DNA from: Candidatus Kerfeldbacteria bacterium
GTDB taxonomy: Bacteria > Patescibacteriota > Patescibacteriia > UBA10025 > JAHIVO01
NCBI GenBank assembly: GCA_016214565.1
Contig: JACROE010000002.1
Coordinates: 728,007-792,006 of the forward strand
Reading direction: 5' to 3'
DNA: 64,000 bases
Part shown: positions 2 to 60,552 of the stretch, piece by piece
How the letters are laid out: each line of letters begins with the position of its first letter
How positions within the stretch are numbered: position 1 is the first letter of the stretch
The notes under the pieces: generated by a model
The model's database searches: none
The model's input: only the letters and a program-made list of their open reading frames with translations
What the model was told of the DNA's origin: nothing
Made by a program: the position numbers and the translations under genes

Positions 2-1708
2 CAGAGCACTCTTTCGACGCCACTTTTCACCGACCACAACGAGCTGAAAACCTTTGACTGGGTTGTCGCCAATCCGCCCTTTTCATACAAAGCATGGCGC
101 AACGGATTCAATCCGGAGGCCGACGACTTTGGCCGTTTCGACGGATTTGGCGTTCCGCCAAAGAAGAATGGTGATTTTGCGTTCTTGCTTCATATACTCA
201 AGAGCCTCAAGAGCACGGGCACCGGTGCGGTGATTCTGCCGCATGGCGTACTCTTCCGAGGTAACACCGAAGCCGACATCCGAACCAACATCGTGAAGCG
301 GGGATACATCAAAGGCATAATCGGATTGCCACCTAACCTCTTTTACGGCACCGGTATTCCGGCCTGCATTATCGTCCTCGATAAGAAAGACGCGGCCAAT
401 CGTAAAGGTATTTTCATGATTGACGCGTCGAAAGGGTACGTCAAAGACGGGAACAAGAACCGACTCAGAGAGCAGGATATCAGGAAGATCGTCGACACCT
501 GGGACGGCAAACTGGAAATTCCGAAGTTCTCCCGGTTTGTTCCGAACGAAGAGATTGCCGAGAAGAACCAATACAATCTCAATCTACCGCGCTACATCGA
601 CACCCAGGAGCCGGAAGACATTCAAGATATAGAGGCCCACTTGAAAGGGGGCATTCCGGAAGCCGATATCGAAATGCTGAGCGCCTTTTGGGAAGTGTGC
701 CCTGGGCTTCGTAAGGCGCTGTTCAAATCGTCCGACCGAAAGGGCTATGATCAGTTGGCGATTGAACCGGGTGATGTTCGAAAAACGATTTTGGATAACC
801 AAGAGTATCACGCTTTTCGAGCACAGGTGGATAAGATCTTTGGTAGTTGGCGCGAACAGATTGTCCCCGGTCTCAAGGGCATTTCCACTAAGGATCACCC
901 CAAGGCGATAATCCAATCTGTCTCTGACAAGCTGCTCGCGCACTGCACGAAACTGCATTTGATAGACAAGTACGACATTTACCAGCATCTTATGAACTAT
1001 TGGGATGAAGTGATGCAAGACGACGCCTACATTCTCACGACCGAGGGCTGGAAAGCTGGCAACGTCGTCACTCGATTGCAGCGAGAAGGCAAGGGAAAGA
1101 AGAAGGACATAGAAGGTCTGCCCGGACTTGAGGGCCGTCTCATTCCCGTTTCGCTTATGATAGGGACCTATTTCAGCAATGAGCAGGCTGAGCTTGACGA
1201 GCTATCTGTACGATTGGAGCAGATAGCTGCGGAAATGGACGAACTCAAGGATGAGCATGGCGGCGAAGAGGGCTTACTTACTGAGGTCATTGACAACGAT
1301 AAGATATCCAAAGGGGCAGTTCAGAAAAGGATCAAGGAAATCAAAGACGACAGCGACTTCGCTGATGAACTGAAGGTTCTGGAAGCGTACTTCGCGAACT
1401 TCGAGAGTGAGGCGGAAACCAAGAAACTCATTAAGGATCGTGAAAAGGCACTTGAGGCCAAGATTCTGGCGAAGTACCCAAAGCTGACACTTGATGAAGT
1501 GAAGACGCTTGTCGTCGACCGCAAGTGGATGGATTCGTTGCAAGGCATGATTCTAGGGCAGGTAGAGCGCTTGGCGCAATCACTTGCGAGTCGAGTTCAG
1601 CAGTTGGCTGAGCGATATGCCGAGCCTCTGCCGGCATTAACGAAGTCAGTTGAAGCACTCACTTTGACGGTGAATGGTCATCTGACAAGAATGGGTTTCA
1701 ATAAATAA
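2..1708 (+). CDS. hsdM: Type I restriction-modification DNA methyltransferase subunit HsdM, 5'-truncated by window edge
   Basis: Frame 2 is open from nt 2. It encodes ...FDWVVANPPFSYKAWRNGFNPEADDFGRFDGF..., with the N6-adenine MTase motif IV NPPF at nt 74-85. The C-terminal coiled-coil region is typical of HsdM. The ORF-track ATG at 185 is internal. Confidence 0.85.
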   Translation, partial: QSTLSTPLFTDHNELKTFDWVVANPPFSYKAWRNGFNPEADDFGRFDGFGVPPKKNGDFAFLLHILKSLKSTGTGAVILPHGVLFRGNTEADIRTNIVKRGYIKGIIGLPPNLFYGTGIPACIIVLDKKDAANRKGIFMIDASKGYVKDGNKNRLREQDIRKIVDTWDGKLEIPKFSRFVPNEEIAEKNQYNLNLPRYIDTQEPEDIQDIEAHLKGGIPEADIEMLSAFWEVCPGLRKALFKSSDRKGYDQLAIEPGDVRKTILDNQEYHAFRAQVDKIFGSWREQIVPGLKGISTKDHPKAIIQSVSDKLLAHCTKLHLIDKYDIYQHLMNYWDEVMQDDAYILTTEGWKAGNVVTRLQREGKGKKKDIEGLPGLEGRLIPVSLMIGTYFSNEQAELDELSVRLEQIAAEMDELKDEHGGEEGLLTEVIDNDKISKGAVQKRIKEIKDDSDFADELKVLEAYFANFESEAETKKLIKDREKALEAKILAKYPKLTLDEVKTLVVDRKWMDSLQGMILGQVERLAQSLASRVQQLAERYAEPLPALTKSVEALTLTVNGHLTRMGFNK

Positions 1709-1709
1709 C

Positions 1710-3002
1710 GTGGACGTCATGTCGACAAGGGTAACCGTAGAGAACGAATCATCACTCAAGACTACTGAGGTAGGTGCCATACCCCGGGATTGGGATCTAG
1801 TCTCATTCGATGACGCCTTCGAGTTTCTTCGCACAGCCTCATACTCGCGAGAGCAGCTGGGCGCAAATGGTGATTACCAATACATTCACTACGGGGACAT
1901 CCATACGAAGTGGTCATTTTTTGTTGATATGTCAAAGGCTCGCACTCCAACTGTCGATCGCGGGCAAGCGGGGAATTATAGTCAGATAAAGGAAGGCGAT
2001 CTTATCCTTGCCGATGCCTCTGAAGATTATGCGGGTGTTGCTAAGAGCGTGGAAGTTATTAATCTCGGTGAAAAGAAGGCCATTGCGGGCCTCCACACCT
2101 TCCTCCTGCGAGACAAGGGCAACAACTTCGTTGACGGTTTCAAAGGATATATTACTTCGAGTCCGCTTGTCAAACCTAGCTTGGACCGCTACGCCACAGG
2201 CTTAAAAGTCTTTGGCATATCTAAGAACAACTTGAAACTGGTACCGATTCCAAAGCCACCATCGGAACAGCAGAAAGCCATTGTTAAGGCGCTCAGAGAT
2301 ACAGACGCCTTGATAGAAAGCCTCGAGAAGCTCATCGCCAAGAAGCGAGCAATCAAGCAGGGCGTGATGCAGGAGCTACTGACCGGCAAGCGGCGGCTGC
2401 CGGGGTTTACTAAGGCGTGGACCAGAGAAAGAATAGGAGATTGTACTCAAATCGTCAGCGGTGGCACCCCGCGCACAGATAGAAACCAGTATTGGAACGG
2501 TGGCATTAAGTGGTGTACACCTACCGACATTACTGGCACTTTTGGGAAATACCTTCATGATACTCAGCGATCAATTTCACAGGCGGGTCTCAAAAGCTGT
2601 GCCGCTCGCCTTTTACCTGCTGGCACTCTGCTGTTATGCAGTCGTGCGACCATAGGTGAAGTCAGGATAGCTACGGATCAAATCTGTACCAATCAGGGAT
2701 TCAAATCACTTGTCTGTAGCGATCGAATTGACAACGAGTTTCTTTATTACCTCCTATTGACGCTCAAGCAGAAGATGATTGAGAAGGCGATTGGTTCAAC
2801 ATTTCTTGAAATTGGGAAACGGGAACTGGCTGCGCTTGAAATACCTTATCCGCCCATAGAGGAGCAGAGAGCGATTGCAATGGTCCTTTGCGAATTAGAT
2901 ACCGAATTGGAGTTACAGCAGAGCAGACTGCAAAAGTTGACCCAGGTTAAGCAAGGCATGATGCAATCTCTCCTAACTGGTAAGATAAGACTAACAGTGT
3001 GA
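1710..3002 (+). CDS. hsdS: Type I restriction-modification specificity subunit HsdS
   Basis: 430 aa with two target-recognition halves. Each is followed by the conserved HsdS repeat: PPSEQQKAIVKAL...KRAIKQGVMQELLTGKRRL and PPIEEQRAIAMVL...QVKQGMMQSLLTGKIRL. GTG start 1 nt after the hsdM stop. Confidence 0.9.
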   Translation: MDVMSTRVTVENESSLKTTEVGAIPRDWDLVSFDDAFEFLRTASYSREQLGANGDYQYIHYGDIHTKWSFFVDMSKARTPTVDRGQAGNYSQIKEGDLILADASEDYAGVAKSVEVINLGEKKAIAGLHTFLLRDKGNNFVDGFKGYITSSPLVKPSLDRYATGLKVFGISKNNLKLVPIPKPPSEQQKAIVKALRDTDALIESLEKLIAKKRAIKQGVMQELLTGKRRLPGFTKAWTRERIGDCTQIVSGGTPRTDRNQYWNGGIKWCTPTDITGTFGKYLHDTQRSISQAGLKSCAARLLPAGTLLLCSRATIGEVRIATDQICTNQGFKSLVCSDRIDNEFLYYLLLTLKQKMIEKAIGSTFLEIGKRELAALEIPYPPIEEQRAIAMVLCELDTELELQQSRLQKLTQVKQGMMQSLLTGKIRLTV

Positions 3003-6000
3003 CTACTATGACAAAAGAAGCGACCCCCAAAGTTGGCCAAATCGAACGCAAGACCCAAGACCGTCTTGTGGCGTTGATTCGTGACCGTCTGAATTACGAC
3101 TACCTTGGCAACTGGGAAGACCGTGAAGATAATAGCAATGTCGAGGAGCTACTTCTTCACTCGTACCTGATTCGGTCCGGATATAGTGACACACTCGTAT
3201 TCAAAGCCGTTGAGGAGCTGAAGAAATGTACAGGTCGATCGAACATCAGCCTATACGACCTTAACCGTGAGACGTACGGTCTGTTGAGGTACGGGGTGAA
3301 AGTCAAGGAAGGTCACGGCGAACACTATAAGACTATTTGGCTCATCGACTGGGAACACCCCGAGAAAAATGACTTCGCTTTCGCAGAAGAGGTTACGGTC
3401 AAAGGGAATCGGACCAAACGCCCGGATATCGTGCTTTATGTAAACGGAATTGCCTTAGGCGTGATCGAGTTGAAACGGAGTATCGTATCGGTTGCCGAGG
3501 GAATCCGCCAGAACATCGGTAATCAAAAGGACGCTTTCATCAAGCCTTTCTTCGCAACCGTTCAACTGCTCATGGCCGGAAACGATACCGAAGGACTTCG
3601 ATTCGGCACTACCGAGACGAAAGAGGACTGCTACCTCACTTGGAGTACAAAGGAGCCGGGATATGAGAAAGACAATCGGCTTGATCGCCATGTTTTGCAA
3701 ATGTGCGAAAAGAAGAGGTTCCTCGAGATCGTTCACGACTTCATTGCCTTCGACAGCGGCATTAAGAAGACCTGTCGGCACAACCAGTACTTTGGAGTCA
3801 AAGTAGCGCAGGAATTCGTGCAACAGCACAAGGGCGGAATAATCTGGCATACCCAGGGCTCAGGTAAGAGCCTGACCATGATCTGGCTCGCTAAGTGGAT
3901 TAAAGAACACATGCACGATCCACGCGTACTTGTTCTGACCGACCGAAAAGAGCTTGACGAGCAGATCGAGCGGTTTTTCATGGGCGTAGATGAGAAGATC
4001 TATCGCGCGAAGAGCGCAAGGGATTTGATAGGGCAACTCAATATCAAGAATGAGTGGCTGCTCTGTTCGCTAGTGCACAAATTCGGCCGTACCGGAGCCA
4101 CCGGTGAGACCGACGTGGATGGATACATCGCCGACCTCAAGAAGAATCTGCCAAAAGACTTTTCGGCCAAAGGCGATCTTTTCGTGTTCGTCGATGAGTG
4201 TCACCGTACGCATACCGGCAAGCTTCACGAAGCGATGAGAGAGCTCCTCCCCAACGCTACATTCATCGGTTTCACTGGCACGCCGCTTCTCAAAATTGAC
4301 AAGTCGAACAGCATTGGCGTTTGGGGCCCATACATCCACACCTACAAATACGACGAGGCAGTGGCCGACAAGGTTGTGCTCGACTTACGATACGAAGCTC
4401 GACGCGTAGACCAAGACATCACGTCACAGGAGAAAATCGACCAGTGGTTCGAGGAACGAACCAAGGGGCTCACCGACGTAGCCAAGGCGGAACTGAAGAA
4501 GCGGTGGGGGACGATGCAATCCCTGTTGTCTTCCAAGTCACGCTTGGAAAAAGTAGTCTTCGATATTCTCGATGACTTCTACAAAAAAGAACGTCTCGCC
4601 AGCGGCCGCGGCAACGCCATGCTGGTAGCGAGCAGCATTTATGAAGCCTGCCAGTACTACGAGATATTCCAGGCTCAGGGATTTACCAAGTGCGCCATCG
4701 TCACGTCATACGAGCCTGGCGCGATTCAGTCCGAAGACCGCGAGTACGCCATCTACCAGAAGATGCTGGGTGGCAAGGCCACCGAAGAGTTCGAGAAGGA
4801 AGCCAAGAAGAAGTTCATCGAAACACCAGGACAGATGCAACTTCTCATTGTCGTGGACAAACTCCTGACTGGTTTTGACGCACCGCCTGCGTCCTATCTG
4901 TATGTCGATAAGAACATGCAGGATCACGGCCTATTCCAGGCGATTTGCCGAGTCAATCGGCTCGACGGTGAGGACAAAGAGTACGGCTACATCGTCGACT
5001 ACAGGGATCTTTTCAAAAAGCTTGAACAAGCGGTCACCGACTATACTGCCGGAGCATTCGAAGGCTTTGATCAAGAGGATGTTCTTGGGCTACTCAAGGA
5101 CAGGTTAGAAGAAGGTCGCAAAGATCTCGAGGAAGCTCTAGAGGTCGTAAGAGCTCTTTGTGAACCAGTTGCGCCGCCCAAAGATTCTGGAGCCTACATT
5201 CGCTACTTCTGTGGAGACGTTGAAAATCCATACGCCCTGAAGGAAAACGAAATCAAGCGGGTCAAGCTCTACCGTTCCGTCAGCCATCTACTTCGAATGT
5301 ATGCCGATCTCGCCAACGATATGGAGAAGGTCGGATTCTCCAGAGCGCAAGCCGAAGCGATCGGCAATGAGGTAAAGCACTACGAACAGGTCCGGATGGA
5401 AGTCAAGCTTGCAAGCGGAGACTACATCGACCTGAAGAAGTACGAGCCGGCCATGCGGACTCTTATCGACAGGTACATTTCGGCAAAAGAAAGCGAAAGG
5501 CTATCCGCGTTTGATGACATGACCCTCGTGGATTTGATCGTCAAAAAGGGCAAAGATGCCATCGACGACCTACCGGAGTCGGTGAAAAAGAACCAAGAAG
5601 CTACCGCTGAGACAATCGAAAACAACGTCCGCAAGCTGATCATCGACGAAACGCCTACGAATCCGAAGTACTTTCTCCGCATGTCGGAGCTCCTCGATAC
5701 CTTAGTGAAGCAGCGGAAACGGGCTGATATCGAGTACAAGGAGTACCTGGCCAAGATTGTCGAGCTTACTAAGCAGGTCAAGCACCCGGAACAGTCGCGT
5801 CATTATCCTTCGCGGGTTGATACACGAGCCAGACAGGCACTCTATGATAATCTCGGACAGGACGAGGGTAAAGCTGTTGCCCTGGACGAGGCAATTGTAG
5901 GCGCACTGGAAGACAACTGGCGTGGTCACATGCAGAAGGAACGTCGGGTGAGGAACGCAATTAAGGGCGCGATGCCGGGGATATCGGAGGACGAGCTCAA

Positions 6001-6040
6001 GTCCTTATTTGAGCTCGTAAAGAATCAACATGAGTACTAA
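2999..6040 (+). CDS. hsdR: Type I restriction enzyme R subunit HsdR (SF2 helicase/translocase + nuclease)
   Basis: 1013 aa. Walker A-like QGSGKSLTM, DEAH-box FVFVDECHRT and helicase motifs are present. The start overlaps the hsdS stop (GTGA), giving translational coupling. Confidence 0.9.
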   Translation: MTTMTKEATPKVGQIERKTQDRLVALIRDRLNYDYLGNWEDREDNSNVEELLLHSYLIRSGYSDTLVFKAVEELKKCTGRSNISLYDLNRETYGLLRYGVKVKEGHGEHYKTIWLIDWEHPEKNDFAFAEEVTVKGNRTKRPDIVLYVNGIALGVIELKRSIVSVAEGIRQNIGNQKDAFIKPFFATVQLLMAGNDTEGLRFGTTETKEDCYLTWSTKEPGYEKDNRLDRHVLQMCEKKRFLEIVHDFIAFDSGIKKTCRHNQYFGVKVAQEFVQQHKGGIIWHTQGSGKSLTMIWLAKWIKEHMHDPRVLVLTDRKELDEQIERFFMGVDEKIYRAKSARDLIGQLNIKNEWLLCSLVHKFGRTGATGETDVDGYIADLKKNLPKDFSAKGDLFVFVDECHRTHTGKLHEAMRELLPNATFIGFTGTPLLKIDKSNSIGVWGPYIHTYKYDEAVADKVVLDLRYEARRVDQDITSQEKIDQWFEERTKGLTDVAKAELKKRWGTMQSLLSSKSRLEKVVFDILDDFYKKERLASGRGNAMLVASSIYEACQYYEIFQAQGFTKCAIVTSYEPGAIQSEDREYAIYQKMLGGKATEEFEKEAKKKFIETPGQMQLLIVVDKLLTGFDAPPASYLYVDKNMQDHGLFQAICRVNRLDGEDKEYGYIVDYRDLFKKLEQAVTDYTAGAFEGFDQEDVLGLLKDRLEEGRKDLEEALEVVRALCEPVAPPKDSGAYIRYFCGDVENPYALKENEIKRVKLYRSVSHLLRMYADLANDMEKVGFSRAQAEAIGNEVKHYEQVRMEVKLASGDYIDLKKYEPAMRTLIDRYISAKESERLSAFDDMTLVDLIVKKGKDAIDDLPESVKKNQEATAETIENNVRKLIIDETPTNPKYFLRMSELLDTLVKQRKRADIEYKEYLAKIVELTKQVKHPEQSRHYPSRVDTRARQALYDNLGQDEGKAVALDEAIVGALEDNWRGHMQKERRVRNAIKGAMPGISEDELKSLFELVKNQHEY

Positions 6041-6758
6041 TTCTTACATGCTCAAGGTCGGATTGGTGGAGGCGCTGATTGTCAGGAAGGCGATCAAGAA
6101 CGTCCACCTGTCTGTTTTGCCGCCAGAGGGTAAGGTTCGAGTCACCGCACCAGTTGCGATGAACGATGACGCTATCCGCATATTGCTGGCTACCAGGCTG
6201 GGCTGGATAAATCGTCAACAAACGAAATTCCGCAATCAGCAACGACAGACTCCGCGAGAATACGTATCCGGTGAAAGTCACTACCTATTCGGCAGGCGGT
6301 ACCGCTTAGAAGTCCGATACGAGGAAGCTCCACCCCGCGTTGAAGCGAAGGCCAACGGAAAACTGTTCCTATATGTCAGACCGAACGCTTCTCAGGGGAA
6401 GCGCCACGAGGTGATAACCGAATGGTACCGTACCGAGCTTCACCAGCTACTTGAAGACTTGATACCGAGATGGCAAGACAAAATCGGTGTTCGACCATCT
6501 GTATGGGCTATCAAGCGCATGAGGACCCGGTGGGGCACCTGCAATAAGGACAAAAAGCGGATTCTTCTAAACCTTGAGCTAGTCAAGAAGCCGGTCTCCT
6601 GCATTGAGTATGTTGTGGTTCATGAACTGATCCACTTGATTGAGAAGAAGCACAATAATCGATTCGTCCAGTTGCTGACGAGGCATCTGCCGAAATGGAA
6701 GAGCCAAAAGCAGGAACTGAATCGCTTCATATTGTCGCATGAGGAGTGGAGATATTAG
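6030..6758 (+). CDS. YgjP/DUF45-family zinc metallohydrolase (M48/WLM-like), common accessory gene of Type I R-M loci
   Basis: 242 aa. HExxH motif VVHELIHLIEKKH plus WGTCN... are typical of the YgjP family. The ATG overlaps the hsdR 3' end by 11 nt. Confidence 0.7.
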   Translation: MSTNSYMLKVGLVEALIVRKAIKNVHLSVLPPEGKVRVTAPVAMNDDAIRILLATRLGWINRQQTKFRNQQRQTPREYVSGESHYLFGRRYRLEVRYEEAPPRVEAKANGKLFLYVRPNASQGKRHEVITEWYRTELHQLLEDLIPRWQDKIGVRPSVWAIKRMRTRWGTCNKDKKRILLNLELVKKPVSCIEYVVVHELIHLIEKKHNNRFVQLLTRHLPKWKSQKQELNRFILSHEEWRY

Positions 6759-6779: not shown

Positions 6780-9700
6780 ATGAAGTGGATAACTGCATCA
6801 GACATCACCAACTGGGCAAACACACAACAGCGGCAGTGTTCTCAGACCTTGCCGGAGTTAGTACGTCGCCTGATTTTTGCTATCACTTCCGATATTCGAA
6901 CGATTGAATTCCCGAGTGGAGACAGTGTATCCACCAGAGGTTGGGATGGCCGACTCGATGCACCCGTAGCTGTCCCGTTTTTTCCGCAAGGCGTGTCGGG
7001 GTGGGAAATTGGCTCTGATAAATCGGCCAAGAAAAAGGCCGATGGAGACTTTGCCAAACGGATTGCTGAGCCTGACGGGCTTATTCCCGCTGATACCACT
7101 TTTGTCTTCGTTACTCCGAGGTCGTTTCCGAGCCGCGCGAAATGGCAATCTGATAATCAAGCAAAGGGACACTGGAAGGCGGTGCGAGTTGTTGCGGCAG
7201 ACGGGATTGAACAGTGGTTGGATTCTGCGCCGGCGGTAGCGCTATGGTTGGCGAGAACAATTGGCAAAGCAACCGGAGATAGACTCCGAGACATCGAAGA
7301 GTGTTGGGATGAATGGTCCTATTCGACTTCACCTCCCATGAGTATCCCGTTGGTAATTGCAGGACGCACAAATGAACAGGATAGAATTCACAAGTGGCTA
7401 TCGGAAACACCCGATAGGCTTGAAGTTCAAGGTGATTCTCCAGCTGAAGCGCGTGCCTTTCTGTATGCTGCAATCTGCGGCTTGCCGGAGAGCGAACGTT
7501 CGCGAGTGCTCTCAAGATGCATAGTGATTGATAATTTAACGGATCTCCGTAATTGTATAAGAACGTTTCTCAATCCGTTGGTTATTGTCACTACTTCTGA
7601 TTGCAGTGAGGCGGTTGGCCTCGCTATCAACAAGGGACACCATGTCTTTGTCTGTGTGGATGCAAGTGTGATAGATATCGCTCGAATTTTACGTCTTTCC
7701 CGTCCGAAAAGGTCAGCAGTAGCTGCCACCCTGCAAGAATTGGGCTTGTCGCCAGCTAACGCCCAACAACTCGCGCGGGATTTCGGGCGAAGCATCCCGG
7801 TACTCCGCCGCCACTTAGCCGTATCGGGTGCTGCCCGGCGGCCACCGTGGTCAGAAGCCGACCAGGCACGGTCTCTCATGCCATTGATGCTACTTGGTTC
7901 AATTTCTGAAAGTACAGACGGGGACAAACAAATTGCTGAGATAGTCTCCGGGTTCTCATTCACTGTTTATGCCGAACGGCTTAATGAGCTTAGAGTATTC
8001 GAGGATAGCCCTGTAGTAAAAATTGGAGAAGTATGGACACTCAAATCGCCGCTCGACTCTTGGTTTTTGATCGCGGGACAATTGACCGCAGATATTCTCA
8101 CCGCATTTTCGAGTGCGAGCACGCAAGCGTTAGAAGAACTGCATCCGAAGTATGAGCTATCACCCGACGAACGGTGGATGGCAGCTTTTCATTCCAAGAT
8201 TAGGCAATATTCCCCGCATTTGCGAATGGGTCTTGCCGAAACTCTGGTCCGTATGTCGGTCTTCGGTGATAAAGCACCGATCGCGCTATCCGCTCCTCAA
8301 GTCGCACAGCAGGCGGTGCGAAATATCTTGTCAGCAACAACCAGTTGGCAGGGGTGGGCTTCAATACAGGACATTACTCCGCTGCTAGCCGAGGCCGCAC
8401 CCGTAACATTTCTCGAAGCTGTGGAACAAGTTATTGCCACCCATCCTGAAATCGTTACAGAATTGTTCAAAGATGAGGGTCAATCGCTCTTTGGGGAGTG
8501 TAAGCATGCTGGCCTGCTGTGGGCACTTGAGTCTATCGCCTGGGACCCACAGTACTTTGAGCGCGTCGTTGCTTTATTAGTCGACTTGGCGAAGTTAGAC
8601 CCAGGTGGACAGTGGGTAAATAGGCCCCTGAACAGCCTCAAGGATTTGTTCTTACCCCAATACCCACAGACTCACGCGGGCCCGACGGCGCGGTTATCGG
8701 CGTTCGAAACCCTCATACAAAGAGACGCTCAGCTAGCCTGGCAGATCGCATACAGTTACTTCGATCGCGGAATCATTAGTGCCTCGCATCAATATCAATG
8801 GCGTGATGCCGGAGGCGAGCGCCGAGGGTTGGAACCGGAGTCCAATGAGAACTATGCTGCCTACCTGACGGGATTATGGCCTAAAGCGAAGGCACTGGCG
8901 GCGATGCCAATAAATGTAATACAGGCACTAGACGACTTTACAAGACTTCCACCGGACTTTCGTGAACAGGTTGCGTCCGTTCTGTTGTCAATGAATGCCG
9001 AAGAACTGTCTTTGGATGATCGACTTCGGTTATTAGAAAAGGTGCGAGAAGCTTTGAACTGGATTAACAGCTATGGTAAGGAGGAGTATCAAGAGTCAAT
9101 ACCGAAACTAAAGGAGATACTACAGCGCTTTGAGCCAGATGACGTTATTGAACGTGTCGGCTGGCTATTGAAGTCGCCTTGGCCACGTCTTCCCGAAGGA
9201 ACAACTAAAGATTACGACGCTGACGAAGAGCACGTTGCAGCGTTGCAACAGCAGGCCGCGCGTGAGTTACTCGACAGTATTGATATTGAAGCTATTCTCA
9301 GCTTTGCCAAGACGACAGAATACACTGGCGTTGTGGGTACTGCTATAGGGAGAGCGATAAAAGATGACGAAGAAGACCAGCGAGTGCTAAGCCAGCTTAT
9401 CAAGGGAGCTTTGCCAACCCAGGCTCGCGAAGTAACAGGATATGCCGCGCAACGAATACGCATCGCCGGAATACATTGGATCGACCGGCAAATAGCGTAC
9501 CTGAAAACTGTTGGCGTAGCAACACCGGAGGTCATTGCATTAATGCTCTTGGGACTACCCGAGCAAGCTTCGACGTGGGAAAAGGTCGCAGCGTTTGGGA
9601 TTGAGGTAGAGAAAGCTTACTGGGGACTAGCGACAGGGCGTTCGCGTTCAGATCGACTCTCAGATGCTGCTTTGGCAGTAACGAAGCTGTTGAATGCTCA

Positions 9701-10568
9701 TCGACCGGATGCTGCGCTTGAGATTGCTGGGGATCCCAAGTTATCTTTGCCCAGTGCATTACTGAAGCGCCTATTGCTCGAGCTGTTGGAGCACAGCAAG
9801 TCTGCAACACAACCTCGTCACGATGCGATGCTGCCTTTTCACTTGGGATATGTATTCAGGCAGATTCACGAGCGCGATGAGTTGCCGCTGGGAGAGATTG
9901 TAGCCCTGGAATGGCCCTATGCCTCATTGTTCGATGATTTCAAACAGTATTTGTCTAAGCCCTTGGCCATCCACCGACTATTACAGCGCGACCCTGGTCA
10001 GTTTGCCGATTTCGTCGCGCTCATGTACAAACGCGATGACAGAATCCGAACAGATGAAGAGCCGCTTGACCAAAAAGCCATGCAAATCGCCAGAAACGCG
10101 CGTGAGGTCGTATCATCCTGGCGGCTTATGCCGGGTCTGAGTTCTGACGGCGGTATTGATGAAGGCGAGCTTCGTGCTTGGGTTCTCGCCGTGCGCGACA
10201 AGTGCAGATCTCTGAAGACAGTAACTGGCTGCGATATTGAACTAGGCACCATGTTAGCGCACGCCCCTCGCGATAGCGATGGAAATTGGCCTCATACGGC
10301 TGTCAGAAACATCATCGAACTACTGGCAAATCAGACTATTGATCGGCATATCGAAACAGAGCTGTTCAATAGTCGCGGCACAACGGTGCGTAGCCCAGGA
10401 GAAGGTGGCAGGCTGGAGAGAGAGCTCGCGCTAACCTATCGCCGGATGAGCGACGCGCTGAAAGAGAAGTGGCCAAGAACCGCTCAAATCTTGCGCTCCA
10501 TGGCTAGCACCTACGAGCATCAGGCGGGTCGGGAAGATATTGATGCGCAACTGAACGACTTCAGTTGA
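6780..10568 (+). CDS. Large uncharacterised protein (1262 aa), alpha-helical-repeat rich with a distinct ~180-aa N-terminal domain; function unknown
   Basis: Long uninterrupted ORF, co-directional and 21 nt downstream of the YgjP-like gene. No Walker A, no HEPN Rx4-6H motif and no obvious PD-(D/E)xK motif were recognised by eye. The N-terminus is ...SGDSVSTRGWDGRLDAPVAVPFFPQGVSGWEIGSDKS... Confidence 0.6.
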   Translation: MKWITASDITNWANTQQRQCSQTLPELVRRLIFAITSDIRTIEFPSGDSVSTRGWDGRLDAPVAVPFFPQGVSGWEIGSDKSAKKKADGDFAKRIAEPDGLIPADTTFVFVTPRSFPSRAKWQSDNQAKGHWKAVRVVAADGIEQWLDSAPAVALWLARTIGKATGDRLRDIEECWDEWSYSTSPPMSIPLVIAGRTNEQDRIHKWLSETPDRLEVQGDSPAEARAFLYAAICGLPESERSRVLSRCIVIDNLTDLRNCIRTFLNPLVIVTTSDCSEAVGLAINKGHHVFVCVDASVIDIARILRLSRPKRSAVAATLQELGLSPANAQQLARDFGRSIPVLRRHLAVSGAARRPPWSEADQARSLMPLMLLGSISESTDGDKQIAEIVSGFSFTVYAERLNELRVFEDSPVVKIGEVWTLKSPLDSWFLIAGQLTADILTAFSSASTQALEELHPKYELSPDERWMAAFHSKIRQYSPHLRMGLAETLVRMSVFGDKAPIALSAPQVAQQAVRNILSATTSWQGWASIQDITPLLAEAAPVTFLEAVEQVIATHPEIVTELFKDEGQSLFGECKHAGLLWALESIAWDPQYFERVVALLVDLAKLDPGGQWVNRPLNSLKDLFLPQYPQTHAGPTARLSAFETLIQRDAQLAWQIAYSYFDRGIISASHQYQWRDAGGERRGLEPESNENYAAYLTGLWPKAKALAAMPINVIQALDDFTRLPPDFREQVASVLLSMNAEELSLDDRLRLLEKVREALNWINSYGKEEYQESIPKLKEILQRFEPDDVIERVGWLLKSPWPRLPEGTTKDYDADEEHVAALQQQAARELLDSIDIEAILSFAKTTEYTGVVGTAIGRAIKDDEEDQRVLSQLIKGALPTQAREVTGYAAQRIRIAGIHWIDRQIAYLKTVGVATPEVIALMLLGLPEQASTWEKVAAFGIEVEKAYWGLATGRSRSDRLSDAALAVTKLLNAHRPDAALEIAGDPKLSLPSALLKRLLLELLEHSKSATQPRHDAMLPFHLGYVFRQIHERDELPLGEIVALEWPYASLFDDFKQYLSKPLAIHRLLQRDPGQFADFVALMYKRDDRIRTDEEPLDQKAMQIARNAREVVSSWRLMPGLSSDGGIDEGELRAWVLAVRDKCRSLKTVTGCDIELGTMLAHAPRDSDGNWPHTAVRNIIELLANQTIDRHIETELFNSRGTTVRSPGEGGRLERELALTYRRMSDALKEKWPRTAQILRSMASTYEHQAGREDIDAQLNDFS

Positions 10569-11900: not shown

Positions 11901-12125
11901 CGGTATCATTTCGACAGGTGATCACGCTAGAACGGGATTGTCTTCTATTGCAGTTCTAACATCATTCACCAGACGGACGGGGACAGGAAACGTGCACATC
12001 GGGAACTGCCTTTACAGAGACCCTGATTTGTGGTATTCTGTTGACTAATTGCCCTCATTTTAGCCAAAAACTGTCAGGGTGTTCGATGAAAAAGGTGCGA
12101 ACGTCTGACACCAGGCCCCACCATT

Positions 12126-12355
12126 GGGTGCGTAGCTCAGTCCCGACGCGAAGCGGTCGGGATTCCGACTGAAACGTCGGAACTGGTTAGCCTTCAAAAT
12201 CCCATAGGATATGTGAGAATAGAAGCCCATTTATTTGTAGGGGTGCGTAGCTCAGTCCCGACGCGAAGCGGTCGGGATTCCGACTGAAACGTCGGAACTG
12301 GTTAGCCTTCAAAATCCCATAGGATATGTGAGAATAGAAGCCCATTTATTTGTAG
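12126..12355 (+). repeat. Two identical 115-bp tandem direct repeats; each begins with GGGTGCGTAGCTCAG (the 5' end of the downstream tRNA-like element) and contains two perfect 7-bp hairpins
   Basis: Copy 1 (12126-12240) and copy 2 (12241-12355) are identical by eye. The hairpins are TCCCGAC-gcgaagcg-GTCGGGA and TTCCGAC-tgaaac-GTCGGAA. Confidence 0.85.
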
Positions 12356-12409
12356 GGGTGCGTAGCTCAGCTCGTGAGGTCAGAGGTTCGATCCCTCTCG
12401 CGCCCACCA
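12356..12409 (+). other. 54-nt tRNA-like element (7-bp acceptor stem with one G-U, short D-like hairpin, T-arm AGAGG-TTCGATC-CCTCT, encoded CCA) lacking an anticodon arm; tRNA remnant/pseudogene or minihelix-like RNA
   Basis: GGGTGCGTAGCTCAGCTCGTGAGGTCAGAGGTTCGATCCCTCTCGCGCCCACCA. The acceptor strands GGGTGCG and CGCGCCC pair, the T-loop is canonical, and the length is too short for a functional tRNA. Confidence 0.4.
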
Positions 12410-12552
12410 CGCGTTCACAATTGCTTCGTCCTTCGTGTGACGAATCAAGTTCGTCCCACTCCGCACGTCAGCAATGTGCCCGCTTTTCCCCATCAAGCAG
12501 AGCTTGATGGGGGATCCCGAAGAAAGATTACTAAAAAATCCGTTACGGTATT

Positions 12553-13185
12553 ATGAAAATTACCCCAGACAAAGAGACAATTGCCCGCGAACCGAAAGCA
12601 GAACAGGGCGTGCCAGACTACGCGAAATCACCGCGCGGTTTTTTGGTTGAGCTGATAAAAATCGTTTTGATCGCCGTGGTGATTATTATTCCGATCCGGT
12701 ATTTTTTGTTTCAGCCGTTTTACGTCCGTGGCGCCTCCATGGAGCCGAATTTCCACGACAATGAATATCTCATCATTGATGAAATTACCTATCGTTTTAC
12801 TGAGCCGCAGCGTGGAGAGATTGTGGTAGTTCGGGATCCAAAGAATCATGCTGAATTTTTGATTAAACGTATTATCGGTTTGCCGGGTGAGACCATTCAG
12901 GTGATCGAGGGCAATGTATACATTTACAATCAGGAAAATCCGGAGGGAAAAATATTATCTGAGCCATACTTATTTAGTCACATAGTTACGACGCATGATC
13001 AGCGGGTGGAGGTAGGCTCGGATGAATATTTCGTGATGGGGGACAACCGACCGGTTAGCCTGGATTCGCGGAGCTTTGGCCCTATTTTGAAAAAAAATAT
13101 TGTGGGACGTGCCTGGCTTCGGGTGTGGCCGTTTGAAACTTTTACTCACTTTTCTGTGCCAAGTTATAGTACGCAATCACAATAA
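12553..13185 (+). CDS. lepB: Signal peptidase I
   Basis: N-terminal TM helix. Catalytic Ser box GASMEPNF, Lys box KRIIGLPGE and GDNRPVSLDSR are present. Confidence 0.9.
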   Translation: MKITPDKETIAREPKAEQGVPDYAKSPRGFLVELIKIVLIAVVIIIPIRYFLFQPFYVRGASMEPNFHDNEYLIIDEITYRFTEPQRGEIVVVRDPKNHAEFLIKRIIGLPGETIQVIEGNVYIYNQENPEGKILSEPYLFSHIVTTHDQRVEVGSDEYFVMGDNRPVSLDSRSFGPILKKNIVGRAWLRVWPFETFTHFSVPSYSTQSQ

Positions 13186-58821: not shown

Positions 58822-58844
58822 TCATGCATAATCAATCCCCAAAG

Positions 58845-58919
58845 CGGGCCCAAGGGGATTTGAACCCCTGGTCTCCTCCGTGACAGGGAGGCGTGTTAAC
58901 CGGGCTACACCATGGGCCC
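58845..58919 (-). tRNA. tRNA-Asp (anticodon GTC), no encoded CCA
   Basis: The reverse complement folds as a canonical cloverleaf: GGGCCCA TG GTGT AGCCCGGTTA ACAC G CCTCC CTGTCAC GGAGG AGACC AGGGG TTCAAAT CCCCT TGGGCCC G. The anticodon loop CTGTCAC carries GTC. Confidence 0.85.
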
Positions 58920-60151: not shown

Positions 60152-60552
60152 TGGTGGAAGCGAGGGGTATTGCACCCCTGTCCATGATGTTCGCGGTATT
60201 CATTTCTACAAGTGTAGTTCGTTTGGATTTGGCAACCGCCTGGTAAAAGCGAACAAAAGTCCGGGCGGCTGTTCGTCACACCAATTGTCGAGAATACGCG
60301 GTGACGGCGCGCATTCCGTATCCCGAAAATGTCACTACGCTATACTATCGGGCGTTGTATAGGTAATGGCGGTTGGATGTATTATGCAACCGCGAGTGCC
60401 GGCATACGGAACGCCGAAGCGATCGTAGCCTTCACTTTTGAAACAAATGAATTGGCATTTGTATAGTGTTATCAGTTTGATTTACATCTCACGATAACAA
60501 GAGATGACTTGCCATGAATATCAACGTGCACCTGTCGATTTTTTCTGCTCCC
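60152..60552 (-). ncRNA. ssrA: tmRNA (ssrA), about 401 nt, adjacent to smpB
   Basis: The minus-strand RNA starts GGGAGCAGAAAAAATCGACAGG (compare E. coli GGGGCUGAUUCUGGAUUCGACGGG). It ends GGACAGGGGTGCAATACCCCTCGCTTCCACCA (compare GGACGCGGGUUCAACUCCCGCCAGCUCCACCA). The acceptor has a G3-U70 pair, the Ala identity element. A candidate tag ORF reads ...GCT ACG ATC GCT TCG GCG TTC CGT ATG CCG GCA CTC GCG GTT GCA TAA (ends ALAVA*). Confidence 0.6.

Follow-up and report, generated by a model that had tools for sequence, protein, structure and literature searches.

The 64,000-nucleotide (nt) stretch of Candidatus Kerfeldbacteria contig JACROE010000002.1 analyzed here (the window, whose coordinates are used throughout) carries a perfect tandem array of tRNA-derived sequence at positions 12126-12409, upstream of the lepB gene. 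Our preferred reading, to which we assign a probability of roughly 0.6, is that the array consists of two miniatures, lacking an open reading frame (ORF), of a GIY-YIG nuclease cassette that invades tRNA genes, followed by the dead tRNA gene that was the target. The anatomy of the array and its family membership, as judged by architecture, are highly probable; that the nuclease drives mobility has, from sequence comparison, about an even chance of being correct. A full cassette has four parts in a fixed order: a tRNA 5' piece that starts at position +1 and usually runs to about position 21-23; one or two hairpins of the form NNCCGAC...GTCGGNN; a promoter-less GIY-YIG gene of about 88 amino acids (aa); and a complete tRNA gene whose first 15 or so nt are those of the 5' piece. 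The corresponding features of the window are listed below.

12011..12039, plus strand: promoter-like site TTTACA-17-TATTCT with a TG extension, from a consensus scan; the stretch is kept in relative L009.
12073..12123, plus strand: remnant resembling a tRNA 3' end, GTCAGGGTGTTCGAT...ACACC AGGCCCC ACCA, its T-loop longer by about 21 nt; a weak assignment made by reading.
12126..12140, plus strand: unit 1, tRNA-Val positions 1-15 (acceptor 5' strand, U8 A9, D-stem 5' strand, A14 G15); 14 of 15 bases agree with the intact tRNA-Val(CAC) of relative L010.
12141..12182, plus strand: unit 1, 42-nt double hairpin of the NNCCGAC family, TCCCGAC-GCGAAGCG-GTCGGGA and TTCCGAC-TGAAAC-GTCGGAA, between G15 and C16; identified by folding.
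12183..12190, plus strand: unit 1, D-loop remainder CTGGTTAG (tRNA positions 16-22), where tRNA homology ends; compare GCTCAG|TTGGTTAGAGC in L010; same layout in L044, L045 and L052.
12191..12240, plus strand: unit 1, 50-nt non-tRNA spacer at the place of the GIY-YIG ORF in full cassettes; assigned by position only.
12241..12355, plus strand: unit 2, exact copy of unit 1, with positions 1-15 at 12241-12255, hairpins at 12256-12297, CTGGTTAG at 12298-12305 and spacer at 12306-12355.
12356..12370, plus strand: third copy of tRNA-Val positions 1-15, joined straight to position 38; from the sequence and the L010 alignment.
12371..12409, plus strand: tRNA-Val(CAC)-type positions 38-76, namely C38, the anticodon-stem 3' strand TCGTG, the variable loop AGGTC, the T-arm, the acceptor 3' strand CGCGCCC, A73 and an encoded CCA; from the L010 alignment and Rfam.
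12410..12530, plus strand: hairpin-rich, terminator-like flank that follows the CCA and precedes lepB (12553-13185); homologous to the flank 3' of tRNA-Val(GAC) in L010.

Tandem Repeats Finder describes 12126-12370 as a perfect tandem repeat (period 115, 2.1 copies, 100% matches, zero indels), in agreement with the two identical 115-bp units reported in a preliminary description of this DNA. The 15-mer GGGTGCGTAGCTCAG, likewise reported there as occurring three times at 115-nt spacing, is exact at 12126, 12241 and 12356, where 0.04 matches are expected at up to 2 mismatches, and the unit repeat as a whole is a 130-nt exact repeat spaced by 115 nt. Exact copies of the 42-nt double hairpin lie at 12141-12182 and 12256-12297 (0 expected), and the element folds into the two perfect 7-bp stems already noted, with loops GCGAAGCG and TGAAAC, the GAAA-type loop (DNA fold z = -3.6). 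The 100 nt between successive 15-mers had been described as one identical insert; the identity holds, but the single insert does not, since this DNA is a composite of the 42-nt double hairpin, tRNA positions 16-22 (CTGGTTAG) and the 50-nt spacer. Excision of the hairpin pair from a unit leaves GCTCAG|CTGGTTAG, an ordinary D-loop, which indicates that each unit, as judged from its sequence, begins with a displaced piece of tRNA-Val (positions 1-22) into which the hairpins were inserted precisely behind G15, with no duplication; 50 nt of non-tRNA DNA complete the unit. The units therefore contain the module that defines the family: a fragment that starts at +1, then AG and the NNCCGAC...GTCGGNN hairpins (12126-12182 and 12241-12297), then a D-loop remainder (12183-12190) and a non-tRNA spacer. 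At the same place as CTGGTTAG, the remainders at other loci are TTGGATA in L044, GTGGATAG in L045 and CAAATTGGCT in L052.

Known repeat and intron classes were also considered for the array. An Rfam search returned a marginal tRNA match and sub-threshold CRISPR-repeat matches, and no ribozyme or intron. The best CRISPR match, CRISPR-DR20, scores 16.8 bits against a gathering threshold of 42, and the "spacers" of the array are identical to one another. A group I intron would be a ribozyme of at least 200 nt in the anticodon loop; the inserts are 42 nt long and lie in a D-loop, and no Rfam intron match was found at E <= 10. A hidden tRNA assembled from a unit or from spliced copies was rejected, since the unit holds no D-stem 3' strand and no anticodon arm.

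The same architecture recurs in metagenomes. A first scan with a 22-mer hairpin junction as the query gave zero matches; a scan with the pattern AGCTCAGTCCCGAC-N(3-24)-GTCGGGA (AGCTCAG-TCCCGAC, then a loop, then the complement) gave 30 loci, of which 12 distinct ones have a window-like layout: the first 14-18 nt of a tRNA, the hairpin or hairpins, sometimes decayed tRNA sequence, a spacer, and a downstream tRNA. In 11 of these 12 loci an ARAGORN-valid tRNA with the same first bases lies 67-281 nt past the first copy (Val-CAC, Val-GAC, Val-TAC, Met, Thr, Phe and Arg are represented), and at the remaining one, L018, the contig ends within the array. Exact repeat lengths cluster at 15, with a 42-nt repeat in L025 and a 15-nt repeat with one mismatch in L035 as exceptions, and the repeat starts at tRNA +1 in 11 of the 12. 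Tandem arrays are also present, at three of the 12 loci: L036/L044 has one variant unit and two identical 132-nt units followed by an intact tRNA-Val(GAC), and L018 has 131-nt units. At other insertion points the repeat still begins near +1, covering positions 1-34 of tRNA-Tyr in L043 and -10..+13 of tRNA-Met in L015. The start is constant and the length varies with the insertion point; the repeat is therefore the stretch from the tRNA start to the break and not a fixed-length target duplication, and a casposon- or Cas1-like 15-bp stagger is ruled out by the Tyr, Met and L025 repeats. ORF-less forms are common in this family of hairpin-tagged fragments.

Among the other matches of the scan, seven (four distinct sequences) lie in GC-rich coding regions (L016, L022, L023, L027, L031, L037 and L040) and were treated as unrelated or chance; a few more lie in other contexts. 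Single hairpins in Verrucomicrobia and Lentisphaerota (L006 and L007, the latter with a GIY-YIG-like ORF nearby) were likewise treated as unrelated or chance. Two modules adjoin each other in L043. On the minus strand at 880-520, a hairpin-bearing copy has the perfect palindrome CCCCGCCATGGCGGGG in place of the anticodon arm and is followed by an intact tRNA-Thr(GGT); at 470-20, the order is the 5' half of tRNA-Tyr (1-34), a GC hairpin, a GIY-YIG ORF and an intact tRNA-Tyr.

What occupies the place of the spacer in the fuller members of the family is a nuclease gene. An ORF of about 90 aa that encodes a GIY-YIG domain (Pfam PF01541, E = 8e-16) takes up the spacer in L019/L020, L015 and L043. 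The L015 protein, used as a database query, has 73 homologues of about 88 aa, all with PF01541 and many on very short contigs; six of their contexts were fetched, which together with L015, L019 and L043 gives nine. All nine GIY-YIG genes adjoin a tRNA gene, and eight lie directly upstream of it in the same orientation, with a stop codon within a few nt of the tRNA +1 or overlapping it. A hairpin-tagged 5' fragment lies upstream of the nuclease gene in eight of the nine (L015, L019, L043, L045, L047, L050, L051 and L052); L049 is a variant. The five tagged contexts among those fetched are as follows.

L045, JGI metagenome: GCCCCGTAGCTCAG, two hairpins and GTGGATAG; Arg-TCT downstream.
L047, JGI metagenome: fragment to the anticodon, hairpins at 27/28; Met downstream.
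L050, ENA metagenome: GGGCGCTTAACTCAG, two hairpins and CTG; Val-TAC downstream.
L051, Omnitrophica metagenome-assembled genome (MAG): GGACGATTAGCTC, two hairpins and CAGCTGG; Val-TAC downstream.
L052, Patescibacteria MAG: TGCCTGTAGCT, two hairpins and CAAATTGGCT; Arg-GCG downstream.

In L045 and L047, sigma-70-like promoters can be read upstream of the fragment and none between the ORF and the tRNA. The hairpin module of an ORF-less unit in L015 is shared with the ORF-bearing cassette of L050, and ORF-less units are therefore regarded as deletion derivatives of full cassettes. These proteins have the GIY-YIG catalytic domain that homing endonucleases of the I-TevI and SegB type also have, and the best relative of solved structure in the PDB is the UPF0213 protein BH0048 (E = 1e-5).

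The hairpin module itself is a recurrent entity. A scan of a genome collection with hairpin 1 of the array found the same 42-nt module at two places in the Patescibacteria MAG JAZDEZ01, again after G15: one is a tRNA-Ala(CGC) gene, the other a tRNA-like 5' fragment (GCAAGAT...). These 57-60 nt, at 98% and 93% identity, are the sole nucleotide similarity between 16 kb of JAZDEZ01 and the 64-kb window. Across the modules there are seven stem types, each with a perfect complement (TCCCGAC, TTCCGAC, CTCCGAC, CCCCGAC, AGCCGAC, CGCCGAC and TCCCGAT); the CCGAC/GTCGG core is fixed, the outer pairs covary, the loops measure 3-69 nt and the inserts as a whole 17-85 nt. The perfect complements and covarying outer pairs imply selection for pairing, and the invariance of the core suggests that a protein recognizes it. 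Hairpins always stand 3' of AG (CAG| or TAG|) with no target duplication, a motif too short to diagnose kinship with REP/RAYT or IS200/IS605 elements. Their insertion points are 10/11, 12/13, 13/14, 15/16 and 27/28, and they precede the end of the displaced fragment by about 7-9 nt whether that end lies in the D-loop or in the anticodon. When the hairpins were deleted in silico, ARAGORN regained a tRNA at 1 of 33 sites; hairpins therefore mark discarded fragments, and at the family level they are not introns of working tRNAs. Candidate roles for them are nuclease recognition, protection of the mRNA 5' end, or existence as an independent selfish element. The preliminary description had proposed, as one of four possibilities, a structured element that targets the D-loop and disrupts a tRNA gene, and of the four this is the nearest to the mark. 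It stands as far as a recurrent 42-nt module after G15 in other Patescibacteria is concerned, and the search for further copies that the description had suggested is answered by JAZDEZ01 and the 12 metagenome loci; it does not account for the missing arms, since the hairpin-bearing copies are discarded fragments and the armless state is a separate deletion.

Precise insertion after AG at several positions without target duplication would also be expected if the double hairpin were an autonomous insertion element, like REP sequences, miniature inverted-repeat transposable elements (MITEs) or mitochondrial double-hairpin elements, that lands in neutral DNA. The tRNA fragments would then be partial tandem duplications, the GIY-YIG genes would be unrelated, and the array would result from slippage between 15-nt repeats. 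Such independence gains from the conservation of the stem sequence across unrelated contigs and from hairpins of the same family outside tRNA contexts (L005, L021/L034, and further copies in L008 and L019). Also, chimeric copies in L029 and L051, whose 5' and 3' parts derive from different tRNAs, fit recombination at hairpins and could come from exchange among dispersed copies. However, ordinary duplications are not expected to begin at tRNA +1 in 11 of 12 distinct loci; the presence of hairpins in eight of nine GIY-YIG/tRNA modules, with a nearly constant distance of 7-9 nt to the fragment end, suggests one coupled event; and the only hairpin copies in the 64-kb window are the two in the array. 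We consider an autonomous palindrome unlikely as the source of the array, and favor the cassette.

Several further observations concern hairpins and insertions in tRNA genes. At L051 1040-1310 (Omnitrophica GCA_016212005.1), the 5' piece of one Val tRNA is followed by four hairpins, the 3' part of another Val tRNA and then the latter's own 5' piece with a hairpin, an order that resembles a Campbell-type exchange at the hairpin site. At L005 3590-3665 (JAUYPY010000035.1, minus strand), the hairpin TCCCGACGCGAAGCGGTCGGGA and a second GC hairpin lie within an apparent protein-coding region and may be an in-frame insertion. L041 (JACCDG011841054.1) has, at about 2520-2640, a tandem repeat of 43 nt that includes TCCCGACAGCC...CTGTCGGGA hairpins and CAGCTCAG and stands in no tRNA context. 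Whole tRNA genes are nested at 21/22 of a tRNA with the same anticodon in L004 (JAZDEZ010000007.1, minus strand, about 3290-3090 and 3015-2790) and L008 (about 5060-4880); the pairs are Arg-CCT in Arg-CCT and Ala-CGC in Ala-CGC, bracketed by the near-complementary CCTGCCCGCC and GGCAGGCGGG, and the nesting looks like a second kind of tRNA-carrying insertion. The same insertion of about 55 nt (CCCCGCCACAATAAATAAAATTAATCAA...GGGCGAGGTC...) is found in the T-loops of two different tRNA genes (L004, about 2715-2660, and L008, about 4975-4920, both minus).

The third copy of the 15-mer has CTCGTGAGGTCAGAGGTTCGATCCCTCTCGCGCCCACCA directly 3' of it, and the resulting 54 nt (12356-12409) have lost the middle of a tRNA. 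They match the Rfam tRNA family RF00005 at 29.9 bits, against a gathering threshold of 29, with 1 and 2 nt in the D-arm and anticodon-arm places where 9 and 15 are expected. As the preliminary description had observed, a T-arm, an acceptor strand complementary to the 5' end and an encoded CCA are present: GGGTGCG pairs with CGCGCCC (7 bp, one U-G), the T-arm is AGAGG-TTCGATC-CCTCT, and A73 precedes the CCA. It was also correct that no tRNA can be built: the D-arm and the anticodon arm with the anticodon are missing, ARAGORN calls no tRNA at 12356-12409, and the missing piece (GAGCGCACGAYTCACA-like) has no copy elsewhere in the 64-kb window. The relative L010 (GCA_049325535.1; LepB 73% identical) has, upstream of lepB and in this order, tRNA-Val(GAC), a tRNA 5' fragment with a GC hairpin, and an intact tRNA-Val(CAC). 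The last of these shares TCGTG, AGGTC and CGCGCCC with the window copy in addition to 14 of the 15 bases at the 5' end, and alignment with both L010 tRNAs leaves a 23-column gap over positions 16-37/38. By this comparison the 54 nt are a tRNA-Val(CAC)-type gene with a 22-nt deletion of positions 16-37, anticodon included. The left end of the deletion, G15|C16, is the point at which the hairpins are inserted, and CT is common to both ends, as deduced from the D-loop CTGG of the units and C38-T39; the deletion thus fits a break at G15|C16 mended by end joining via CT microhomology. The gene lost would probably be dispensable if a tRNA-Val(UAC) exists. A link to tRNA-His, in view of the adjacent histidyl-tRNA synthetase gene, was unsupported, the sequence being of Val type.

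A 7-bp acceptor stem, a canonical T-arm and a CCA that survive together, three identical 15-mers, and a promoter-like site at 12011..12039 that is predicted and could drive transcription across the array toward lepB might instead be taken as signs of a functional RNA. The 5' fragment with its hairpins would be a leader or decoy for maturation of the downstream tRNA, or the 54-nt piece an armless minihelix for CCA addition, aminoacylation, priming or processing, as the preliminary description had considered. Compared with shuffled controls, the whole 284-nt region has the better fold (z = -4.7), but this value is inflated by the perfect repeats. The form made of positions 1-15 and 38-76 is found at no other locus, a normal tRNA is present in all 11 family loci with the downstream gene in view, and the closest relative lacks the whole region. 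No Rfam family beyond the marginal tRNA match was found, and the anticodon, on which identity for valyl-tRNA synthetase depends, is missing. A functional role is therefore quite improbable, and a tRNA gene killed by deletion is the reading we retain.

The surroundings of lepB vary among relatives. The closest relative found, L009 (LepB 87% identical), has the promoter-like stretch in common with the window as far as TCAGGG (window 12074-12079), so that homology breaks off inside the remnant at 12073-12123, which neither Rfam nor ARAGORN calls. In L009 lepB follows at most 45 nt past TCAGGG, with no tRNA and no array, and the promoter-like stretch lies about 100 nt upstream of lepB. Since L009 does without them, the array and tRNA region is dispensable and fast-rearranging. 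Downstream, lepB, hisS, a HIT gene, rpsU, yqeY and a giant pilin-like gene are kept in relatives. Upstream, the genes before the tRNA cluster of L010 differ from those of the window, and the tRNA locus is therefore a synteny breakpoint. The window has at 185-6758 a type I restriction-modification operon (hsdM, hsdS, hsdR) and a gene for a YgjP-like metallopeptidase, followed before the array by a 1262-aa ORF without assignment (6780-10568), a response-regulator ORF and a zinc-ribbon ORF. In L010 itself, at 2753-2875, the 5' fragment GGGTGATTAGCTCAGTTGGTTA upstream of the intact tRNA-Val(CAC) has a different GC hairpin (CCCGCCCGA...TCGGGCGGG) at 21/22. A recombination hot spot is suggested by the contigs of several relatives, whose ends lie 100-180 nt upstream of lepB. 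The other RNA genes called in the window by Rfam or ARAGORN, both on the minus strand, are a tRNA-Asp(GTC) at 58844-58919 and a standard tmRNA at 60152-60552 (61.9 bits), and there are no more; a tmRNA-like domain was ruled out for the array.

A synteny breakpoint at a tRNA gene raises the question whether the repeats are multimers of an attachment (att) site, left by integrase-mediated integration or excision of an island, which was another suggestion of the preliminary description. The different upstream genes of the window (the restriction-modification operon and the 1262-aa protein) and of L010 would agree with this, as would the many Logan contigs of relatives that end just upstream of lepB. 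L011, which has the same LepB as L010 and comes from another sample, offers a putative att-like junction at a tRNA 3' end: in L011 1-480, compared with L010 2877-2960, the tRNA-Val(CAC) body is swapped for unrelated DNA up to ...CCCA|TGTCGATCC. Integrase att repeats, however, normally cover the 3' part of a tRNA, and the segment repeated here is the 5' end, positions 1-15. In addition, a scan of 17 ORFs (185-32268, a subset of the window ORFs) turned up no integrase, the intervening DNA is 100 nt only, and the family is tied to GIY-YIG genes, not to integrases. Att multimers are thus a very improbable source of the array. A phage att site or phage origin was likewise dropped, scans of viral contigs and phage BLAST searches having come back empty.

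That the repeat is a product of assembly is unlikely. A spurious duplication or mis-join, which would also have made the 22-nt gap in the tRNA, could be suspected from the 100% identity of the copies in a metagenome-assembled genome, and from the Logan assemblies: two independent ones hold the flanking genes and neither crosses the array. The place at which they stop is informative. The independently assembled Logan contig L003 (run SRR12113395) stops at window 12155, that is, 12125 + 30. Logan assemblies are built from a k=31 graph, and with this k a unitig is expected to stop there when the 30-mer from 12126 has two different left neighbors, as it does only where the reads join the end of one unit to the start of a hairpin-bearing unit. 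The reads therefore contain at least two units, the copy number being two or more. The same tandem layout, moreover, is found in the unrelated metagenome contigs L018, L036 and L044, and a clean 22-nt internal deletion is atypical of assembler error. An artefact, which the preliminary description had listed as a possibility, is on this evidence very unlikely. A second branch point in the reads, from a variant allele or a paralogous flank, is indicated by L001 and L002, two Logan contigs that both have their start at 12466.

We propose the following route to the array. A promoter-less GIY-YIG cassette would enter the 5' part of a tRNA gene, bringing or creating a new 5' segment, so that a complete tRNA is re-formed directly downstream of the cassette. 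The old 5' piece would stay upstream, hairpin-tagged, behind the native tRNA promoter, and a single transcript from that promoter would then cover fragment, hairpins, nuclease and tRNA. RNase P, whose established function is the release of tRNAs from precursors, would free the tRNA from this co-transcript. Spread would occur by nuclease-triggered recombination in a homing-like manner, as for free-standing endonucleases such as T4 SegB. ORF-less units would arise from full cassettes by deletion, and tandem arrays either from unequal recombination between the repeated 15-mers or from re-invasion of the restored tRNA. The 22-nt deletion that killed the tRNA-Val(CAC)-type gene of the window would go back to a break at 15/16 and its repair through CT microhomology.

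A number of points weigh against this reading. In the window itself there is no GIY-YIG similarity anywhere in the 64 kb, so that its link with the nuclease runs through shared architecture only, and no similarity of the 50-nt spacer to a cassette or GIY-YIG gene could be detected; such likeness as it has to the ends of cassettes or to the C-terminus of the nuclease was too weak for use. The copy downstream of the units is not an intact tRNA, as it is in all 11 comparable family loci; it has the same 15 nt and misses positions 16-37. No pair of occupied and empty alleles was found, so that mobility is conjectural. The nuclease proteins (79-136 aa) are bare catalytic domains with no linked DNA-binding domain, they score 26-28 bits with the group I intron endonuclease model TIGR01453 against a cut-off of 56, and their best structural relative is BH0048; sequence-specific homing by an ~88-aa bare domain is for these reasons unproven. 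The model leaves unexplained how a restored tRNA escapes cleavage, and these data do not distinguish re-invasion from plain unequal crossing-over. Finally, the hairpins could be independent palindromic elements, and the metagenome scan pattern, which demands tRNA D-arm context, gives no measure of hairpin frequency elsewhere.

Taken alone, the window yields a modest result, a decayed remnant rather than a working tRNA-like RNA. A broader proposal, which we hold tentatively and at slightly less than even odds, is that small GIY-YIG genes and CCGAC double hairpins form an undescribed, widespread class of selfish cassettes, so far in Patescibacteria and Omnitrophota, that home into the 5' parts of tRNA genes, ride the tRNA promoter, supply a replacement 5' segment and leave arrays of fragments; the window would then hold a non-autonomous miniature array that killed a tRNA-Val(CAC). 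If the cassette model is true, it would provide a function and a target for the unannotated ~88-aa proteins, a large family, that are labelled "GIY-YIG nuclease family", and a reason why tRNA loci of candidate phyla often break assemblies and hide tRNA fragments from finders. It would also be a DNA-level alternative to the self-splicing intron, in which the invader of an essential RNA gene is rendered harmless by replacement of the 5' end and not by splicing. Such invaders could still erode the tRNA sets of minimal genomes, as in the loss of the tRNA-Val(CAC)-type gene here. Hairpin-tagged 15-mers offer a simple diagnostic signature for genome annotation.

No published description of hairpin-tagged tRNA 5' fragments or of bacterial GIY-YIG-tRNA cassettes was found, within an incomplete coverage of the literature, and no sequence match was found among 50,697 phage records. 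Several known systems nevertheless share parts of the architecture. T4 SegB is a full-length protein, larger than a bare catalytic domain. It is a free-standing GIY-YIG homing endonuclease encoded in a tRNA gene cluster, recognizes DNA encoding a conserved tRNA motif through a 27-bp site and, with no intron involved, drives the preferential inheritance of itself and of neighboring tRNA genes (PMC2330249). The cassettes resemble SegB in having a GIY-YIG nuclease gene among tRNA genes. SegB is, however, a phage gene with a T-psi-C motif as its target and no hairpin-tagged fragment, whereas the cassette protein is about 88 aa long and chromosomal in Patescibacteria and Omnitrophota, and the cassette break lies in the D-arm or 5' half, with the tRNA 5' segment duplicated.

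Free-standing homing endonuclease genes of fungal mitochondria insert in a gene and carry a replacement for the displaced gene end. Here too the invader restores its target with a duplicate of the displaced part, and the old part is left as a pseudo-fragment. The difference is one of polarity: the mitochondrial genes concern the 3' end of a protein gene and leave the fragment downstream, whereas the cassette swaps the 5' end of a tRNA and leaves the fragment upstream, behind the native promoter. Double-hairpin elements of Allomyces mitochondria, one kind of repetitive hairpin-forming element, as far as the secondary account cited here describes them, are short, G+C-rich and dispersed, with two consecutive hairpins and without flanking duplications (Paquin et al. 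2000, via PMC2800124). To that extent the window hairpins are alike, being two consecutive G+C-rich hairpins of a dispersed family with no flanking duplication; unlike the mitochondrial elements, to which they have no sequence relation, they are bacterial, have a CCGAC/GTCGG core and occupy a fixed place in tRNA 5' fragments beside a GIY-YIG cassette.

In the archaeon Caldiarchaeum subterraneum, a tRNA-Thr 5' fragment lies upstream of the tRNA, with a recombinase-encoding 1.8-kb element between them, in a heterogeneous population (PMC3293823). The common feature is a mobile element flanked on one side by a displaced 5' fragment and, downstream, by the complete tRNA gene; the archaeal case differs in its DNA recombinase and its link to bulge-helix-bulge (BHB) introns and split tRNAs, and has no GIY-YIG gene and no CCGAC hairpins. 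For the question of att repeats, the SegB and Caldiarchaeum papers serve as analogies only. Group I introns are known from tRNA genes of Patescibacteria, where these self-splicing ribozymes interrupt the anticodon loop and the gene is otherwise complete (PMC13011429). They share with the cassettes the interruption of tRNA genes in the same phylum and the failure of standard tRNA finders to detect them; in contrast, the inserts described here are hairpins of 17-85 nt in discarded fragments, have no Rfam intron match, and their removal restores a tRNA at only 1 of 33 sites. Set against these systems, the window element appears to be a decayed, ORF-less member of an apparently undescribed variant of homing-endonuclease cassettes, one directed at tRNA genes.

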